Source of the DNA: a virus
Lineage: Duplodnaviria > Caudoviricetes
Length of the DNA: 58,559 bases
Virus record (IMG/VR): IMGVR_UViG_3300030095_002502
Coordinates: 1 to 58,559 of that record
Reading direction: 5' to 3' (one strand)
Shown: positions 29,717 through 41,730 of the stretch, one piece after another
How positions within the stretch are numbered: the stretch's first letter is position 1
Layout of the letters: each line of letters begins with the position of its first letter
Translations under genes and position numbers: made by a program
Notes under the pieces: generated by a model
What the model saw: only the letters and a program-made list of their open reading frames with translations
Told to the model about the DNA's origin: nothing
Database searches by the model: none

Positions 29717-29971
29717 TTATTTAAACCACAAATAATATGCGATTACTCCTAAACATAATATGTTTCCTAATGTATATAAGGTTATCTCTGCCCATGATAT
29801 ATCTTTTTTCTTTACCTTACGTTTAACTGGTTTGGCTTGAACTATATAATGAGGAACTGAGTTCCAACATTCATCACATAGATAGGCTTTGAGGTGTGGT
29901 TCTTCACTCATATAATGGGTTCTACACTTATTGCAGTTATGCCATAAGGCTTTATAGTAAGTTGGCTGCAT
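29717..29971 (-). CDS. Zn-finger protein with C-terminal membrane anchor
   Basis: CNKC...CDEC and a hydrophobic tail. Confidence 0.6.
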   Translation of the reverse strand: MQPTYYKALWHNCNKCRTHYMSEEPHLKAYLCDECWNSVPHYIVQAKPVKRKVKKKDISWAEITLYTLGNILCLGVIAYYLWFK

Positions 29972-30554
29972 GTGCCACCTCTATGTAAGATTGATTAGCC
30001 CTAAGGATAGGACCACGTAATTCTTCAGGAATATAACTTAACCCCTCTACTCCTGTTTGTAAGTCTTCCATAAATAATTTAATGTATAAATTAAAATCGT
30101 TTGTTATGTAGTGGAATCCGTTAGCTACATCTTCATCATAATCTCTAACAAAGTTTATTATTTGGTATGCTCTACCTAAAGCTCTAGCGTGTATCTCTGC
30201 TCTTGGGTCACAACCTAGTATAGCAGCCATCATCATACCTACTGATTCAGCTGAACCTTTACAATACTCAAGCATAGAAGTCACAGTATGTTCTTTCTTA
30301 ACTAAGTCAGTATACATTGATAGGTGGAAGTCTGCTAACCATTCACCTTTGAACTGATACTTATCGCTTACTTCATAGAACTGCTCTATCACTTCTCTCC
30401 AATGTTTAAAATCTTTTAACTCAGCACCCTCTACCATCTCGTCACATACTCTAAGATATGCGTAGAGTTTGTATATATCTTCTTTTATATCTTTAGGCCA
30501 CTCAGACATAGCATCAAAAAACGTGGTGCTATATTTTTCCATTATCTCTTTCAT
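29952..30554 (-). CDS. phytoene/squalene synthase family protein (CrtB/HpnD-like)
   Basis: STTF, LYAYLRVCDEMVE, EYCKGSAESVG, ARALGRAYQIINFVRDYDED. Confidence 0.85.
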   Translation of the reverse strand: MKEIMEKYSTTFFDAMSEWPKDIKEDIYKLYAYLRVCDEMVEGAELKDFKHWREVIEQFYEVSDKYQFKGEWLADFHLSMYTDLVKKEHTVTSMLEYCKGSAESVGMMMAAILGCDPRAEIHARALGRAYQIINFVRDYDEDVANGFHYITNDFNLYIKLFMEDLQTGVEGLSYIPEELRGPILRANQSYIEVAHAANLL

Positions 30555-32429: not shown

Positions 32430-32607
32430 CTATCTTTCCTCTTATATATTCTCTTACCATCTTTATACTATCTCTCAAAGACTCGTTATCAGTAGTCTCA
32501 GCTACCTCAAAGTCTAAGTCAGAGATAAACATAGAACACACTCGTGGTGTCATATAGTCCATGAGTATCTTCATTATATGTATAGCCTCAGTCTTACTTG
32601 TTACCAT
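32419..32607 (-). CDS. hypothetical protein
   Basis: ORF track; GAGG upstream. Confidence 0.6.
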   Translation of the reverse strand: MVTSKTEAIHIMKILMDYMTPRVCSMFISDLDFEVAETTDNESLRDSIKMVREYIRGKIDDR

Positions 32608-32682
32608 AATTCCTCGGTCTAAGTATAATCTTTTTCTTACTACGCCCTAAGCGTTTATCTAACCATACTAATAGTTCTCTTA

Positions 32683-32856
32683 TCATTCTAATTCCTCCGG
32701 TTTCCATATACCTGCATCCACTATACTCTCAAGCCATCGGTCTTGATATCTCAGTGGCATTTGCATATGTATAATCTCAGCTATCGTAGAGATAGCGTAT
32801 GTCAATGCTTCTATTTCTTGTTTATAGTCTTGTTTTGATTTCATTTTTAACTCCAT
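32683..32856 (-). CDS. hypothetical protein
   Basis: ATG about 22 bp downstream of a TATA box (leaderless-type start). Confidence 0.55.
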   Translation of the reverse strand: MELKMKSKQDYKQEIEALTYAISTIAEIIHMQMPLRYQDRWLESIVDAGIWKPEELE

Positions 32857-32889
32857 TAATATCATATAATTTCAAATTATTTAAAGGTT

Positions 32890-33156
32890 TTGGTAGAGAG
32901 AGATATAACCCCAAACAAAACTGTTGTTGTTGGCGTATAACACCAAACCGTTATACTTATGGCTACTATGTAGCATTGCTTCTATGGTTCGGCCAACAGT
33001 ATAGTTATTTGACAATTTTATGGAAAGTCTTCACGTTAACTATACTCAGCGGCTTTGGGGCGTATGTATCAGGTCTCTACCAATATAGTGGGATAGAAGC
33101 AACGAGAGGTAAATGAGTCAAACAACGAATGTGTAAAAAATTTGTCACTTCTATCC
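32890..33156. ncRNA. candidate multibranch structured RNA
   Basis: Seven nested or adjacent inverted repeats of 5-10 bp in a gene-free gap; strand unresolved. Confidence 0.55.
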
Positions 33157-33168
33157 TATCACCTTAGG

Positions 33169-33288
33169 TTAAGTCCACCATACGAACATCCACATCCATA
33201 CTACAATGAATATGCCAAACAGTATATACCATTCAGCTTCTTGTATGGCTCGTGGATTATTCCATATGATTTTTAATCGGTCTATCAT
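33169..33288 (-). CDS. 39 aa Trp-rich membrane peptide
   Basis: MIDRLKIIWNNPRAIQEAEWYILFGIFIVVWMWMFVWWT*; TAATG-coupled to the VWA gene. Confidence 0.6.
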   Translation of the reverse strand: MIDRLKIIWNNPRAIQEAEWYILFGIFIVVWMWMFVWWT

Positions 33289-35435
33289 TATACTTTAATC
33301 ACCTTCCTTATTATCTTGCCTATCTTAGGGGCTAAGTCGTATAATTTATCTACAAAGATATGATTACTAAACATCTCTGCTTGAGCATATGTGTCAGCAC
33401 CTCGTATACCTACCTGTATGACACTCCATCCTTGTGACTCTAAATGCTTTACTACTTTCTTAACGTGGGCTCTACCATCCATACCACCGTAGCCATATGC
33501 GGCTGGTTGTCCGTCTGATATTACAATCATTAACTTGTTAGACATAGGCTGGTGGGATTCTTTCTTTACTCGTAAAGATGCGGCGTGTATAGCAGTGCCG
33601 TCTCTATTCTCGTATCGGGCCTGCATACTACCTAAAGCCATAGGTCTATCTTTCATAGTTGGTGACCAATACTCAGTTAGATTAGTAGATAGTTTATCGC
33701 TATGCCACTCGTCATGACCGTCAGCAGTATGACCATACACCCATAAGTTTAGCTTAGGGTTATCATGTAATGCTTCTTTGATTGCTATCGTTGACTGTCG
33801 AGCCATATCCATCTTATCGTAACCCATACTACCAGACTCATCTACTAATATACATACGTCTAAAGGTTTGTCATCTTGTTGTATGTCTACCTTGAATAAG
33901 TCTTGTCTACCTACAGGTATACGATGTAACATACGCTTATCTATCTTACCACGTTTTTGGTTGCGGATGATATGTGTCTGCGTGTTACCATATAAGTCTA
34001 TCTTTCTTTTAAGTTGTGTTGTTACTTTCTTCATAAGCTTAGACTCTTGCGTATATCGTTCTTTGTCACGAGCAGTAGGCATAGCACGTCTCCATGTTAC
34101 CTTCTTAGCGTTGTGGTATATGAGTGCAACATCTTTTAACTTCTCTTCTGAGAAATCACTATCTTCTAAATCTTTTAGCTTAGATGTAAACTGCTTGGAT
34201 AGAGGACTGTCTTGTGCGTCTGCACTCCAATCTACTATCTTAGTCAATCCATCTATATCTGAATGACTTAGTATTTTACTCAGTGCTTCGGCTCGTGCAT
34301 CTCTTTGTGTCATATCACGGGTAACTGCTTCTTCTATCTTATCCCAATCTCCCTCAGTTAGACCTTCGTCACCCATCTCTTCACGCATGGACTCCATCTT
34401 TTCATTTATCTTATCTTCTAATGAGTCATCATCTTTAGCCATAGCCTCTGCTACTTTACGTAAGTATTGGTAGATAACAGATATACAGTGGTATGTATCG
34501 TCTCTACTATCTAAACCTTTAGCTAACGCACGGGCAAAGAACTGTATATGCTTAGCGTGTTTCTTCTTACGCTCTGCACTTAAGTTGTTAGGCCAACGGA
34601 TAAATGCTAACAGTGTATTTAGTATATCAATGAATGGAGTATCGTCATCATCTTCTAATCTCCCTTCCATCTTTGTGTCAAAGTAATGTTTCTTAACTGC
34701 TTCTATGTATGTTACGAAACCTGCATTAGATTTACCTAATTGCTTTTCTATGTATTCGTCTTCTATAGAGTTTGCTATACTATGTAGTAACTTACCCTCC
34801 ATCTGTGAAAGGTCATTCTTATATCTATAATCCTTCTCCCACTGTATCAGTGGCTTGGAGTGTATAAGATGTAGCTTCTCGTGTATAGCCAGACCAGCAG
34901 TAATATCTAAGTTATCGTCACTATCTTTCAGCATAGTGCCGTCTATGTATATTCTGCCGAGTCTCATGTCTGAGTATGATGACCTACCACTCGAGTAGTC
35001 TAACACGTGTGATACAGTAGGGTCTACAACTTTACATAGAGAATCTAAATGTCTCTTATGCTTTAGCATACGTGCCGCATCCGACTGCGACTGAGATGAA
35101 CTACCACCCCAGCTACCCCACATACTTGATACAGTGCTACCGGTATGGGCAGTGTTACCACTATTCCACCAGCTACCACCACCCCATACGTAACTCTTAC
35201 CACGATTCCATATGTCACCGGTGTAAGAATTAATCTTAGGTGCGTCAGACGTAGCTACCTTAGCTGTCTCTGCTGAGTCCCACTTATCTGAGTAGTCGAG
35301 TTTACTCTCGCATATAGGGCAACAGTCATCTTGTGTTGCTTCTATCCACTTAGAACATTCATAACAGTAGTCGTCTTCTGCTATCTCTGCCCAACTATCT
35401 ACGTCAGTGAAGTGCTTGTCATGTTTAATAACCAT
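33288..35435 (-). CDS. VWA-domain protein with N-terminal HExxH region (CobT-like partner of a MoxR ATPase)
   Basis: MIDAS DESGSM and ISDGQP; HEKLH...NSIEDEYIE; N-terminal Cys pairs. Confidence 0.88.
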   Translation of the reverse strand: MVIKHDKHFTDVDSWAEIAEDDYCYECSKWIEATQDDCCPICESKLDYSDKWDSAETAKVATSDAPKINSYTGDIWNRGKSYVWGGGSWWNSGNTAHTGSTVSSMWGSWGGSSSQSQSDAARMLKHKRHLDSLCKVVDPTVSHVLDYSSGRSSYSDMRLGRIYIDGTMLKDSDDNLDITAGLAIHEKLHLIHSKPLIQWEKDYRYKNDLSQMEGKLLHSIANSIEDEYIEKQLGKSNAGFVTYIEAVKKHYFDTKMEGRLEDDDDTPFIDILNTLLAFIRWPNNLSAERKKKHAKHIQFFARALAKGLDSRDDTYHCISVIYQYLRKVAEAMAKDDDSLEDKINEKMESMREEMGDEGLTEGDWDKIEEAVTRDMTQRDARAEALSKILSHSDIDGLTKIVDWSADAQDSPLSKQFTSKLKDLEDSDFSEEKLKDVALIYHNAKKVTWRRAMPTARDKERYTQESKLMKKVTTQLKRKIDLYGNTQTHIIRNQKRGKIDKRMLHRIPVGRQDLFKVDIQQDDKPLDVCILVDESGSMGYDKMDMARQSTIAIKEALHDNPKLNLWVYGHTADGHDEWHSDKLSTNLTEYWSPTMKDRPMALGSMQARYENRDGTAIHAASLRVKKESHQPMSNKLMIVISDGQPAAYGYGGMDGRAHVKKVVKHLESQGWSVIQVGIRGADTYAQAEMFSNHIFVDKLYDLAPKIGKIIRKVIKV

Positions 35436-35797
35436 TCGTCTATATCCTCTGTTGGCTTCTTTGCCATATGTGTTAATTTATACTCGAAACACTTAAGAGT
35501 TCTCTTGGCTGAGCCTATACTACATTTGTAAACAAACATATCATCTTGCCCAACCATTCCTTCTACCATATTGTATGCAGTCTGCATATCTATAGTCTTA
35601 GGAAGGTTCTTCTCTAACATATTATCATTGATAAGTCTTCGTTTATATGCACCGACGTGTCTACCTGTTATATTAGTTAGGGGAAATATTATCTTTATAG
35701 CTTTAGCTACTTCAGTAGGAGACATACCGTGTTCTAATAGAACTTTAGCAGTGTCATGCCAATACATATGTTTCTTAGGTCTACTCTTCGTTGCCAT
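35399..35797 (-). CDS. putative helix-turn-helix protein
   Basis: LLEHGMSPTEVAKAI segment; between the AAA and VWA genes. Confidence 0.5.
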   Translation of the reverse strand: MATKSRPKKHMYWHDTAKVLLEHGMSPTEVAKAIKIIFPLTNITGRHVGAYKRRLINDNMLEKNLPKTIDMQTAYNMVEGMVGQDDMFVYKCSIGSAKRTLKCFEYKLTHMAKKPTEDIDEWLLNMTSTSLT

Positions 35798-36843
35798 TAT
35801 TCACCCATAGATTGTATAGCTTGTATTACTTTTACTCTATCAGTGTCATCACCGGCGGTGATAGGATAGAATGGTAATACTGTATGCTTGAGTGCATCTA
35901 ATAAACTCATACCATCTACTACTAACTCAGCTACAGACAAACACATACGTGTAGACACAGCTACGTTTAACTCTTCTGCTTTATATAAATCTCTGATTTT
36001 CTTAGCAAACTCTGTTATACGTCTTGCGTCTTCCTTGTCTACCTGTGGAACACGAACCATAAGTAGCTCTTGTTCTTTCTTCTGAGGTAGATAATCTAAC
36101 TCATATATACCACCGGTAAATCTATCTTTCCATGCACGGTCTAAATCATTAGCGGCTCCGAGATACTCACGACCAATGTTAGCAGTAGCAAAGAAAAATA
36201 CATTGTTGTTTAACTGAACTACGTCTGCGTCATCACTTTCGTCTAAGGCTAAGTATCTTTGACCATCTAATACAGGCATAAGGATATTACCTAAGTCACC
36301 TGTCCTATCTCTTGTGACCTCGTCAAGCATAATAAACGCACCACTACTATCTTGTAGAGCTGATACGAATCTGCTTGGCTTAAACCACGTTCCGTCTTCT
36401 TGGTTATACTTAGTGTCCCCGAGTAGCTTAGCTGCCGGATTCATAGTATCACCGAAGTTGAACTGATGGAATGGTTTGGAAGTTATATCTGCAAGTATCT
36501 TGCCTAAACTACTCTTACCACAACCAGATGGACCTGTTACTAATATATACTTATTCCTAAAAATATTCCTAAGCATAGTATAGAACGTCATCTTATCTGC
36601 AAACTTGAATTCCTCAGGGATATCCACACTTGCTTTTAGTTTGCCAATCACACTATCGTCAATGATAGGGGTCTCGACTATTTTCTCAGTAGAAGGGGCC
36701 GTTGCATCTTCTACGTCTCCGCCGAATAACGCATCTAACCCACCTGTGGTTTCTACGTCTTCTGACTCTGTTTTATATTCGTCTTCATACATTCGTTTGA
36801 TTCCTTTTTTTATAATCTTAATATCTGATAGGAACTTAGCCAT
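35797..36843 (-). CDS. MoxR/CbbQ/CobS-like AAA+ ATPase
   Basis: GPSGCGKS, IMLDEVTR, FATAN, LDRAWKDRF, STR. Confidence 0.9.
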   Translation of the reverse strand: MAKFLSDIKIIKKGIKRMYEDEYKTESEDVETTGGLDALFGGDVEDATAPSTEKIVETPIIDDSVIGKLKASVDIPEEFKFADKMTFYTMLRNIFRNKYILVTGPSGCGKSSLGKILADITSKPFHQFNFGDTMNPAAKLLGDTKYNQEDGTWFKPSRFVSALQDSSGAFIMLDEVTRDRTGDLGNILMPVLDGQRYLALDESDDADVVQLNNNVFFFATANIGREYLGAANDLDRAWKDRFTGGIYELDYLPQKKEQELLMVRVPQVDKEDARRITEFAKKIRDLYKAEELNVAVSTRMCLSVAELVVDGMSLLDALKHTVLPFYPITAGDDTDRVKVIQAIQSMGE

Positions 36844-37000: not shown

Positions 37001-37121
37001 TTTCTCACTTTCTCAGTTGTTTGTGGGGCTGGAACTTAACATAGTTCTCAGCTTATTTAAAGGTTTGGGTAGGTGCTATACGCTTAGCTACTCCTACCCT
37101 TATGCCTTTGTCAGTTAATCT

Positions 37122-38410: not shown

Positions 38411-38493
38411 CACGTGCGGATAACGACGGACGGCTTTATCGAGCTTGGTTTTAATATAGTATTTATACCTTTCGGTTTATATCGCTCGTCATG

Positions 38494-38596
38494 ATATCAC
38501 TGCGGGTTTTTCTAAAAAGTGCAAGCGGAACTTATATGCCCCTATATATACGTCCCCGAGCTTTATATACTCTTTTGACCCCAACCTTTATATACT
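38494..38596 (+). promoter_or_regulatory. multi-TATA promoter cassette, copy A
   Basis: GCGG..TATA..CCTATATA..CGAGCTTTATATAC..AACCTTTATATAC aligns with the reverse complement of copies B-D. Confidence 0.7.
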
Positions 38597-38631
38597 TCGA
38601 AACCATGTGTAATATAGAGGAAAGTGATAAG

Positions 38632-38982
38632 ATGCCATCAACAACAGAAACGCAGAAAAGCACAGCTATGGATTATTTATCGGCCCCAAGAAATGAAGGC
38701 CTTGTAAAAAATCTGATGACTTTAATTGGATTTACAGCTCCAGAAGGCGGTCGTCTTCCGGCAGGTGTAAAGTATGACACAATTATAGCATTAAATGATG
38801 TCGTAGGTAACAATGCAGAAATGCAAAGTATGCTCGCTACTCGTGTATTTGAATTACAAGCTCAAAGACGAACGGCTAACCCAAAAGTTAGTGCAACTCC
38901 TGAGTCTGTAATAAATGCAGTCAAAGCTGGAAAAATATCTTTAGATGAGTTAAAAGCTCAGATAAAATTATTAGAAGGCTAA
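38632..38982 (+). CDS. hypothetical protein, sole + strand gene of the early region
   Basis: MPSTTETQK..., 116 aa; GAGG upstream and cassette A promoter. Confidence 0.7.
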   Translation: MPSTTETQKSTAMDYLSAPRNEGLVKNLMTLIGFTAPEGGRLPAGVKYDTIIALNDVVGNNAEMQSMLATRVFELQAQRRTANPKVSATPESVINAVKAGKISLDELKAQIKLLEG

Positions 38983-39000: not shown

Positions 39001-39211
39001 GGGTGACGAGAGAATAAGAGGTTCACCCATTTATGTTTAAAGAGATAGCTTCTCTTTATCGTTAGTGGCCGAATAAGTCCTACCCAACGGACTAAGGCAC
39101 ACGAACCTGCTCCAACGGACAAGTGTCTGAGGAGGTGGTAAGTGGTAAGCAATTACAAATTAACTACTTAGGTAGTTGGGAGTTGCTTTGGGGGTTAACC
39201 AAGAATCCCCC
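39001..39211 (+). ncRNA. candidate structured RNA (hairpin chain)
   Basis: At least five consecutive hairpins with no ORF. Confidence 0.45.
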
Positions 39212-39239
39212 CTAACACCTTTTATGATTATATGCATAT

Positions 39240-40652: not shown

Positions 40653-40820
40653 TTATTCGTCCCTCATTAAGTCACCGCTTACGGCATCCTCTGAATATCC
40701 GAGTTCGATTAATTGGTCTTCGTCCTCTGAATATTGCATTTGTGCTTTTGCTTTAATTAAAGCTAAATCTATTTCTTCTATCATTCGATTAAGAATGTTC
40801 ATTGTTGTTTTATGATTCAT
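40653..40820 (-). CDS. hypothetical protein (55 aa)
   Basis: MNHKTTMNILNRMIEEID...; first gene behind cassette B, GAGGT Shine-Dalgarno. Confidence 0.6.
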   Translation of the reverse strand: MNHKTTMNILNRMIEEIDLALIKAKAQMQYSEDEDQLIELGYSEDAVSGDLMRDE

Positions 40821-40821
40821 A

Positions 40822-40950
40822 TTTTACCTCTATCCTAACTCTAACAAGAGAGTATATAAAGGTTTGTCTCTAAAAGGTATATAAAGGCCGAGGAGCCTTA
40901 TATAGGGTAATATAGAACCCGAACGCGTTTTTTGAAAAAACCGCACTGAT
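40822..40950 (-). promoter_or_regulatory. multi-TATA promoter cassette, copy B
   Basis: 40822-40921 matches 41618-41717 at 94 of 100 positions by hand alignment; includes the SD. Confidence 0.8.
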
Positions 40951-41271: not shown

Positions 41272-41616
41272 TTAAATACCTCCAATTGGAAAACCTTGTT
41301 CGTAGCCGGTTAAACCGTCGTATGGCATTTGTCCGGTATAGTAGTTCATAGGTATATGGACTTCATCCACTGATGGATATTTTACAAATCTAGCACCTAC
41401 GCTTACAAGTAAGTCCCAAATTTCTTGGTCATCCAATGAACCTTTTTTGGTTCCGAAGCCGTGCAAATTAGCCCAGCCTACCGTATGGCAGTATAAACTA
41501 TTTGGTCCTTCCATTAAAGAACCTGCTACTTCCACATAAAAGTTGTGGATACTCATTAGTCGACCGTTCCAGTCAACGAAGCCAATTTTGTTAGTTGTAT
41601 ATGTTGTTTTACTCAT
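41272..41616 (-). CDS. hypothetical protein
   Basis: ORF track; first gene behind cassette C. Confidence 0.7.
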   Translation of the reverse strand: MSKTTYTTNKIGFVDWNGRLMSIHNFYVEVAGSLMEGPNSLYCHTVGWANLHGFGTKKGSLDDQEIWDLLVSVGARFVKYPSVDEVHIPMNYYTGQMPYDGLTGYEQGFPIGGI

Positions 41617-41617
41617 C

Positions 41618-41730
41618 TTTTACCTCTATCCTAACTCTAACGACAGAGTATATAAAGCTTTGTCCCTAAAAGGTATATAAAGGTCGAGGACCCTTATATA
41701 GGGTAATATAGAACCCGCTCGTGTTTTTTA
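41618..41730 (-). promoter_or_regulatory. multi-TATA promoter cassette, copy C
   Basis: Near-identical direct repeat of copy B. Confidence 0.8.

Follow-up and report, generated by a model that had tools for sequence, protein, structure and literature searches.

Large, intricately folded non-coding RNAs (ncRNAs) are rare, and the classes RNase P, group I and group II introns, OLE, ROOL and GOLLD have each opened new biochemistry. Two further systems bear on the present locus: the Y RNA, an ncRNA encoded beside Ro60/Rsr, a VWA-containing RNA-binding protein, and the c4 antisense RNA of phages P1 and P7, which has loops complementary to the ribosome-binding site and is made from a longer phage transcript. 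ROOL and GOLLD presumably correspond to RF03087 and RF01998, respectively. Both are large ornate RNAs, often found in phages and prophages (Kretsch et al., Nature 2025, PMC12286853). Here we analyse the IMG/VR record IMGVR_UViG_3300030095_002502, a tailed-phage genome with an estimated completeness of 83%, whose entire 58,559 bases form the stretch under study (the window). Its minus strand carries a structured element that follows a MoxR-type AAA+ gene and then a VWA gene and is built of a hairpin P1, nested helices P2, P3 and P4 and an exchangeable interior (coordinates in Table 1). We regard it as almost certainly a genuine structured RNA of the minus strand, and by comparison of sequences it represents a hitherto undescribed, phage-only family of modular structured RNAs.

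The element is like ROOL and GOLLD in being hundreds of nucleotides (nt) long with many conserved helices and loops, in being phage-borne without coding capacity, and in having a variable periphery around a conserved frame. It is unlike them in that it matches neither model, has no adjacent tRNAs, sits in a fixed AAA+/VWA neighbourhood and changes five-fold in size by exchange of modules. Being longer than 150 nt, with covarying helices and conserved loops, apparently non-coding and phage-encoded, it would belong to the descriptive class of large ornate phage-borne ncRNAs. With the Y RNA and Ro60 it shares a structured ncRNA adjoining a VWA-protein gene, and a conserved bulged stem (a possible protein site) joined to a variable domain; however, the VWA protein here is of the NorD, CobT and Rea1-MIDAS type and is paired with a MoxR AAA+ ATPase, and no Y RNA model matches. 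A Ro60/Y-RNA-like pairing of element and VWA protein is only an analogy. Like c4, the element exposes a loop complementary to a ribosome-binding site, but it gives no match to the C4 model, has a candidate target only and is far larger. The manA RNA (RF01745) is also a structured RNA motif of marine phages known from comparative analysis; it is unrelated in sequence and fold, and is a motif of about 190 nt before genes, whereas the present element appears to close an operon. Passages of Fremin and Bhatt 2023 (PMC10690425) report a catalogue of 10,006 candidate viral RNAs, which may list part of the family; full-text literature searches, with the alignments of that catalogue outside their scope, returned no description of it.

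Fold, covariation and coding capacity

The element lies in a gap of 303 nt (32866-33168) without a credible open reading frame (ORF), within a block of minus-strand genes from about 14.6 to 42 kb. On the minus strand, positions 32876-33166 fold at -78.9 kcal/mol, where 200 shuffles give -55.4 ± 4.8 (z -4.87); the plus strand folds at -84.1, its 200 shuffles at -62.3 ± 4.6 (z -4.79), and no shuffle is as good on either strand; when the neighbouring small ORF is included in the fold, z is -4.12 and -3.30. The stability is thus far beyond chance on both strands, as expected under the first-pass annotation, which had proposed a multibranch structured element here, and all nested pairs listed in that annotation are found in the sequence and in the minimum-free-energy fold. 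This fold contains P1, P2 and P3 with the pairings of Table 1, and further the helices 32992-97/32929-34, 32949-56/32935-42, 32970-74/32962-66 and 33037-46/32998-33007. Two candidate helices were rejected. The first, P2b (GAUA/UAUC, 33067-70/32902-05), is in the minimum-free-energy fold and is not kept in relatives. The other is P0, an outer helix that UAAGG before P1 would form with CCUUUA after P2, whose register differs between clades and whose 3' partner belongs to a promoter-like motif described below; its apparent compensation arises because that motif alternates between C and G.

Comparison with relatives supports P1, P2, P3 and P4 by covariation, together with the inner hairpins 32935-56 and 32998-33046. 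Alignment A3 holds 41 distinct P1 hairpin sequences from metagenome loci, in which none of the 17 P1 pairs is broken and five change on both sides. In A5, which comprises 18 divergent P1 sequences aligned to R1, a covariance model of P1, all 306 P1 cells are paired, against 34-56% in slid controls, and changes on both sides are seen in 10 of the 17 pairs. Alignment A4 holds 29 distinct complete elements of the window's type, with lengths of 311-727 nt. Over the 40 pairs of P1-P4 together, pairing holds in 97.5% of the 1155 cells of A4, and sliding the 3' partners by 1-3 columns lowers this share to 42-52%. Both sides have changed in 15 pairs, compared with 2-4 pairs in the slid controls. Among 500 shuffles, none reaches the observed percentage paired, the double changes (counted as pairs or as cells) or the covariation score, and 34 reach the observed value of a further measure, that of further pair types. 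Most of the unpaired P2 cells come from the rows L071, L079 and L092, which are misaligned by three columns in the P2 3' strand. Within P3, the column pair 137-1262 occurs as AU (13), UA (8) and CG (2), and the pairs 140-1260 and 141-1259 are also changed on both sides; in P4, the column pair 148-1251 occurs as GC (19), AU (6) and GU (3).

P1 and P2 are common to the family, and P3 and P4 are added in the window's clade. P2 is fully rebuilt across clades, with at least 12 different complementary sequences. It reads GGUAGAGA/UCUCUACC in the window, and forms found elsewhere include GCACGAAGA/UCUUCGUGC, GCACAAAGG/CCUUUGUGC, AGUCGUAUAGA/UCUAUACGACU, GAUAGCAGAA/UUCUGCUAUC and GUGUGGACU/AGUUCACAC. 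A P2 helix of 9-12 base pairs, joining the segment just after P1 to the segment just before the downstream motif, is present in 24 of 30 loci; four of the others have no motif within 1.1 kb and two have no convincing helix. The bulge of P1 is always A-N-A (AUA in the window, 33157-33159). Model R1 recovers P1 in 19 of 22 VWA loci, scoring 39-107 bits in the gene sense and never more than 20 bits in antisense; for the window's P1, the minus strand scores 98.6 bits and the plus strand 19.6. In the three loci that it misses, L008, L010 and L012, a hairpin alike in shape but different in sequence is recognised by eye; that of L008 reads GGCG-AUA-GGUGCUGAG...CUCAGCAUC-CGUC. G-U pairs are abundant on the minus strand, for example G-U in 15 of 29 sequences at column pair 12-104, U-G in 27 of 29 at 28-91 and G-U in 21 of 29 at 29-90. 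Because these would be A-C mismatches on the other strand, we take the minus strand to be the RNA sense, which the first-pass annotation had left undecided in calling the element a candidate new ncRNA; that call is borne out in so far as the element is conserved and covarying and matches no family in Rfam 15.

The apical loop of P1 is nearly invariant in A3. Its two blocks, CUCAU and UUACCUCYC, are together exactly complementary to a Shine-Dalgarno sequence plus AUGAG (GAGGUAA...AUGAG), with a spacing of 0-7 nt between the blocks, and part of the distant clade has lost the anti-Shine-Dalgarno block or the CAU. A small ORF antisense to this loop (MSQTTNV in the window) was considered and discarded, since it varies from 4 to more than 17 amino acids (aa), has nothing conserved beyond MS and lacks an ATG in L014. 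A 15-nt perfect complement of the P1 5' strand, bulge included, lies at 35857-35871 on the minus strand inside the AAA+ gene (0.00 expected), 2.7 kb upstream of P1 on the same presumed transcript. As a long-range partner of P1 it was rejected: the homologous place of G001 matches at 13 of 17 positions, and the complement is absent from eight of the other nine relatives, with G010 having a match of 13 of 17 at a non-homologous place only. It is probably a coincidence.

For the interior helices proposed in the first-pass annotation, the outcome is mixed. The two hairpins named above have comparative support; the hairpin at 32962-74 recurs only as identical sequence, and the sole comparator of helix 32929-34/32992-97 is L103, which is identical to the window across the whole element. 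The 10-base-pair alternative pairing of 33093-33102 with 32976-85 is indeed present as a perfect 10-mer, which none of 300 shuffles reaches. A two-way switch or pseudoknot does not hold as a property of the family, the longest complement in 15 relatives being 5-7 nt, at chance level; the alternative pairing is a feature of the window's cassette and of the identical L103.

A protein-coding gene finds no support in the relatives, whose longest sense-strand ORFs are at most 56 aa and mutually unrelated, or in the length of the element, which varies from 168 to about 830 nt among them regardless of reading frame. No conserved ORF was found in the gap; its longest ORFs in the window are one of 44 aa with a TTG start on the minus strand and one of 105 aa on the other strand that extends into the adjacent gene. 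Known families were searched with Rfam 15, whose 4227 models include ROOL, GOLLD, OLE, HEARO, raiA, C4, riboswitches and self-cleaving ribozymes. At the gathering score, manA is the only match in the whole window, and the loci of 20 relatives (137,741 bases) give none. At E <= 10, only three chance-level matches of at most 18 bits occur in 32600-33500, and the best in L002 5300-6400 is drum, with 19 bits against a gathering score of 43. ARAGORN detects no tRNA or tmRNA in the window or in the loci of 16 relatives. The mismatch to known RNAs noted from the letters alone is therefore upheld by these searches.

Distribution and interior exchange

A blastn search of 32600-33500 against 50,697 phage records gave no match, and a search of viral contigs with the single VWA protein found no relatives. 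A search based on A1, an alignment of 30 VWA relatives, then succeeded and retrieved 22 viral-contig loci. On the whole, 361 marine relatives of the VWA protein are found at E <= 0.001. When the gap is compared with the closest viral loci, only its two ends align, while the middle differs and measures 400-530 nt instead of about 120. A strict pattern for the P1 hairpin detects 58 metagenome loci and is absent from 185,579 bacterial and archaeal species, each represented by one genome. A 16-mer from the P2 3' strand occurs in 37 viral stretches, among which only five contigs are true, all of them known already; a second composite pattern returned four of these.

The association with the VWA gene is consistent. 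All 21 viral loci having DNA downstream of the VWA gene carry P1, the remaining one (L003) ending at that gene, and among the 45 metagenome loci with at least 700 nt upstream, 44 have the end of a VWA gene on the same strand 160-1161 nt upstream of P1. DNA ligase lies downstream in 29 of the 58 metagenome loci. P1 is a single copy in both complete phage records that were searched whole. The VWA proteins of element-bearing phages are only 47-62% identical, and loci found by the P1 model include some with 44-49% identity to the window's protein. The window's element, with 274 nt, is the third-shortest member of the family. Miniature natural versions are observed at L012 4598-4765 (gap of 168 nt) and L010 4577-4828 (gap of about 250 nt), which retain only P1, P2 and a short hairpin, with one UAUGG module in addition in L010. 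DNA runs from 12 studies contain the window's stretch, and the only run labelled metatranscriptomic covered just 32600-32754, with a relative of 90-95% identity.

The interior between the P4 strands ranges from almost nothing, as in L012, up to about 600 nt, and is built of recurring hairpin modules whose loops are conserved while their stems covary. The loop R-U-W-U-G-G is the most widespread module: a script scan gives 35 distinct hairpin forms, most with covarying stems and with the distant clade included, and the window's copy is GUAUAACG-GUUUGG-UGUUAUAC. In L108 and L098 the loop sequences of module M1 recur on different stems, and two stem changes relative to L108 are compensatory. Contigs break at this interior. 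Many metagenome contigs stop 40-200 nt past P1, and 14 of the 58 end within 200 nt of it. Logan contigs from three DNA runs cover 32600-32920 and about 33050 or later onward at 99% identity or more, with other sequence beyond the break points, and in one run a contig of depth 118 links 32920 to 33050 across different sequence. As read from these contigs, the cassette is swapped between near-identical phages, including within single samples.

Transcription context and possible functions

Upstream of the element, in transcriptional order, lie the AAA+ gene, a 132-aa ORF, the 715-aa VWA gene and a 39-aa ORF. Downstream of P2 follows a conserved tail, ACAACCUUUAAAUA, which is not specific to the RNA and contains a repeated motif. 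This motif, A[CG]CTTTAWATA, has 28 copies with at most one mismatch in the window against 6.7 expected, a number that none of 100 shuffles reaches, and its 18 exact copies are all in the local gene sense, mostly 30-70 nt before start codons. It is kept in relatives with VWA proteins less than 50% identical, also at the 3' end of the element there, and is probably the promoter consensus of the phage family. The preceding copy upstream of the element is at 37054-37064, before the AAA+ gene, and 14 of 17 relatives have none in the interval from the VWA start to P1, the next one being at the 3' end of the element. From the position of the motif between the element and the next gene, we infer that the element ends the AAA+/VWA unit and does not serve the following gene as a leader. 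A promoter-like motif is observed 17 nt before P1 in L022 (5611-5621), where the RNA may be an independent transcription unit, and another 122 nt before P1 in L020. An intrinsic terminator was considered and rejected: P1 is followed by CUAUAUUGG and P2 by AAAACCUUUAAAUA, and a terminator scan found no terminator-like stem with a U tract on the minus strand within 32866-33168. As a separate observation, tandem promoter-like motifs also occur in two near-identical minus-strand units at 40817-40888 and 41613-41684, together with a 21-nt leader plus start, TAGGATAGAGGTAAAATATGA (one difference in the second copy); they precede two small genes, of 55 aa and 114 aa, that are unrelated.

We tentatively favour the reading that the element is an operon-terminal ncRNA acting in trans as a modular binding scaffold or decoy. 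The RNA would form the final portion of the transcript of the AAA+/VWA operon, an own promoter just before P1 being possible in a few relatives, and would act as an ncRNA rather than as the leader of the next gene. Its P1/P2 frame would provide a stable, nuclease-resistant body, partners (proteins or other RNAs) would bind to the P1 apical loop and the interior modules as its working surfaces, and the module set would be under diversifying exchange between co-occurring phages. A more specific version, in which the RNA is a subunit or substrate of the co-encoded MoxR-AAA+/MIDAS-VWA machine, P1 docking on it and the modules serving as decoys or adaptors for different host factors, is a speculative extension that we consider improbable.

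Several points weigh against the favoured reading. Among the 24 runs listed, no RNA run contains the stretch, and the transcription, ends and processing of the RNA are presumed. Neither a terminator, by the scan, nor a known processing site bounds the element, and therefore it may never exist as a separate molecule. The folding energy does not tell the strands apart, with the strand call resting on G-U pairs and model scores. The fixed search pattern for P1 makes its lower stem invariant by construction in A3 and A4, so that this stem is tested only by A5, A6 and the loci L008, L010 and L012, and A5 was fitted to a covariance model, which favours pairing. In addition, the window's cassette is without several modules common in relatives, for example ...UAGCUAAUCAUUAUGC...CGUCAAGCGAACC... 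and CCCCUGUAAAUCUAUCG-hairpin-GAUGAGUUUGG, and could be a degenerate copy.

Among the alternatives, a purely cis-acting boundary at the 3' end of the AAA+/VWA mRNA, giving protection against 3' exonucleases, insulation or processing with no function in trans, is unlikely in our view but the next most probable. It agrees with an element that always ends the VWA unit directly before the promoter-like motif, with a P2 whose 3' end lies 4-6 nt before that motif in all clades, and with the missing own promoter motif in the 14 of 17 loci; the bulged P1 could be a site for a double-strand-specific RNase. A stable stem would suffice for such a boundary, yet phages with VWA proteins 47-62% identical have loops, the A-N-A bulge and internal-loop motifs conserved among them, up to about 600 nt of conserved modules lie inside, and L022 has its motif shortly before P1. 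Control of other genes through the P1 loop is less probable, and we consider it doubtful: the loop (CUCAU...UUACCUCYC) would pair with a ribosome-binding site and start codon and block translation, and the large domain would serve stability or recruitment. What speaks for an antisense regulator is the loop's exact complementarity to a Shine-Dalgarno sequence plus AUGAG with a natural variation in spacing, and the existence of two candidate target genes sharing the leader GGAUAGAGGUAAAAUAUGA at 40817-37 and 41613-33. These are the best start-codon-anchored matches among 171 candidates in the window, with 15 and 14 of 21 positions, and the antisense of the leader that they share, UAGGAUAGAGGUAAAAUAUGA (genes starting at 40820 and 41616), is similar to the 3' half of P1. 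However, shuffled queries have their 95th percentile at the same 15 of 21, the match does not rank first in G001 and falls below threshold in G002, and the gene is missing from eight of ten relatives' records. Moreover, the loss of the anti-Shine-Dalgarno block or CAU in part of the distant clade argues against it, and the site comes only fourth in an energy-based duplex scan, itself dominated by loopy G-rich artefacts.

The remaining explanations are still less probable. The structured pre-primer RNA II of ColE1 provides a model for an origin of replication or primer RNA, in which a structured, ORF-free region is transcribed into a pre-primer. The location among genes for DNA polymerase, ligase, RecU and ribonucleotide reductase, the single copy per genome and the ORF-free gap of 170-830 nt would fit, but the cumulative GC skew turns at about 42 kb and not at the element, and neither iterons nor an AT-rich unwinding region were noticed, although the gap was not scanned for tandem repeats; we judge an origin very unlikely. 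A riboswitch or attenuator controlling the downstream gene, as the first-pass annotation had suggested, has in its favour a multibranch fold upstream of a gene and the 10-base-pair alternative pairing of the window's variant. It is contradicted by the promoter-like motif that separates the element from this gene here and in relatives (the promoter itself being an inference), by the lack of a minus-strand terminator-like stem with a U tract in the element, by the absence of the alternative pairing from 15 relatives, by a downstream gene that differs between clades, and by a size range of 170-830 nt with swapped modules, which is unlike a ligand pocket; such control seems highly improbable. The suggestion of a ribozyme, self-cleaving or other, fared no better and is hardly to be expected. 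The fold is complex and conserved and some relatives have a CUGAUGAG-like string in one module, but no self-cleaving ribozyme model or other ribozyme family matches at gathering or relaxed thresholds, and CUGAUGAG is not conserved, L108 having CAGAUGAG instead, and does not occur in the window.

Neighbouring genes and biological meaning

The window encodes tailed-phage genes (tape-measure protein, terminase, portal, major head protein) and also a DNA polymerase, a ribonucleotide reductase, an ATP-dependent DNA ligase and a RecU-type resolvase; the DNA ligase module lies further downstream of the element. The closest fold matches of the VWA domain are Rea1/MDN1 MIDAS domains with Z of 22.9 and 21.8, followed by NorD with Z of 19.7 (model pLDDT 76.6), and the fold-search matches of the 715-aa protein are filled by this domain, residues 476-715. 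NorD is the VWA adaptor of the MoxR-type ATPase NorQ. A TROVE domain was not found in the protein, for which Pfam gave only VWA, VWA_CoxE and CobT_C, the helical N-terminal part of about 120-480 not having been searched alone. Between the VWA gene and P1, a conserved hydrophobic peptide of 39-51 aa (...W.NPR.I.EAEWYIL...) is observed in the window and in L002 5320-5475, translationally coupled to the VWA gene; the 39-aa product is read as a membrane peptide. It is missing upstream of P1 in some relatives, and other clades have a basic protein of 64-96 aa directly before P1. The downstream 60-aa ORF probably starts at the ATG at 32842-32844, after GGAG.

Table 1. Positions of the structured element, its parts and the adjacent features in the window
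Feature	Position	Strand	Remarks
Whole structured RNA element, 274 nt	32890..33163	-	P1 base to 3' strand of P2; fold z, family alignments A3-A6, covariation
P1	33087..33163	-	4-base-pair base GGUG/CACU, 3-nt bulge, 13-base-pair stem 33144-56/33091-33103, apical region of ~40 nt
P1 apical-loop motif	33104..33117	-	CUCAU (33113-17), then UUACCUCUC (33104-12); nearly invariant in A3
P2 5' strand UUGGUAGAGA	33074..33083	-	Pairs with 32890-32899; compensatory changes within clade
P2 3' strand UCUCUACCAA	32890..32899	-	Pairs with 33074-33083
P3 5' strand GCCCCAAA	33054..33061	-	Pairs with 32908-32915
P3 3' strand UUUGGGGU	32908..32915	-	Pairs with 33054-33061
P4 5' strand GCUG (GCUGAG in most relatives)	33047..33050	-	Pairs with 32920-32923 (CAGU)
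Variable interior cassette	32921..33049	-	~130 nt here, 50-600 nt in relatives; not alignable to relatives
Module hairpin M1	32998..33046	-	10-base-pair stem around conserved internal loop UAACGUGAAG/GUCAAAUA
UAUGG module hairpin	32935..32956	-	Loop GGUUUGGU, consensus R-U-W-U-G-G
Small hairpin GCUAC-AUA-GUAGC	32962..32974	-	Minimum-free-energy fold; recurs only as identical sequence in L017, L079, L111
Single-stranded AUAGAAGCAAU	32975..32985	-	Can pair with P1 3' strand 33093-33102
Promoter-like motif ACCTTTAAATA	32878..32888	-	Directly after P2; presumed start of next transcription unit
Exact motif sites, examples	37054-64, 37979-89, 39894-904, 40853-63, 41674-84	-	
Exact motif sites, examples	38584-94, 47455-65, 52915-25	+	
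MoxR/CobS-like AAA+ ATPase gene	35797..36843	-	PHROG 249 and ATPase families; first gene of presumed operon ending with the RNA
715-aa protein, C-terminal MIDAS/VWA domain (NorD, CobT, Rea1 type)	33288..35435	-	Pfam VWA, CobT_C; PDB profile matches NorD, CobT
39-aa hydrophobic ORF	33169..33288	-	Start overlaps VWA stop codon (TAATG); ends 5 nt before P1
60-aa ORF, next downstream gene	32683..32865	-	Homologues downstream of the element in L002, L004, L019

Two further observations concern the rest of the genome. The manA RNA is located at 39038-39221 on the plus strand, after the plus-strand ORF 38491-38982, with 57.5 bits against a gathering score of 55.2 and in full length (1-192); together with the minus-strand element, the phage thus has at least two structured RNAs. 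In the replication module, a 200-aa protein of the squalene/phytoene synthase family (29952-30554, minus strand; Pfam SQS_PSY, E 1.8e-24) represents an unusual auxiliary gene.

The family is abundant in the ocean, as the DNA runs of 12 studies and the 58 metagenome loci detected by one strict pattern indicate. Its unusual features are the fixed partnership with a MoxR AAA+ and a MIDAS/VWA protein, a frame able to accommodate element sizes that differ five-fold, and the exchange of the interior between near-identical phages, the last being a signature of loci under diversifying selection. Nature offers a size series for structural work, from a minimum of 168 nt (L012) to a maximum of about 830 nt. 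The element also offers a testable RNA link to the AAA+/VWA pair, annotated as 'CobS/CobT' in marine phages, where its role has long been unclear. Should the RNA prove to be a subunit or substrate of this pair, near-identical phages would differ in the host factors that they neutralise, for example a defence nuclease or an RNA-binding protein, and the system would be the first AAA+/VWA remodeller to be guided by or loaded with RNA, an RNA that swaps cassettes as part of an arms race.

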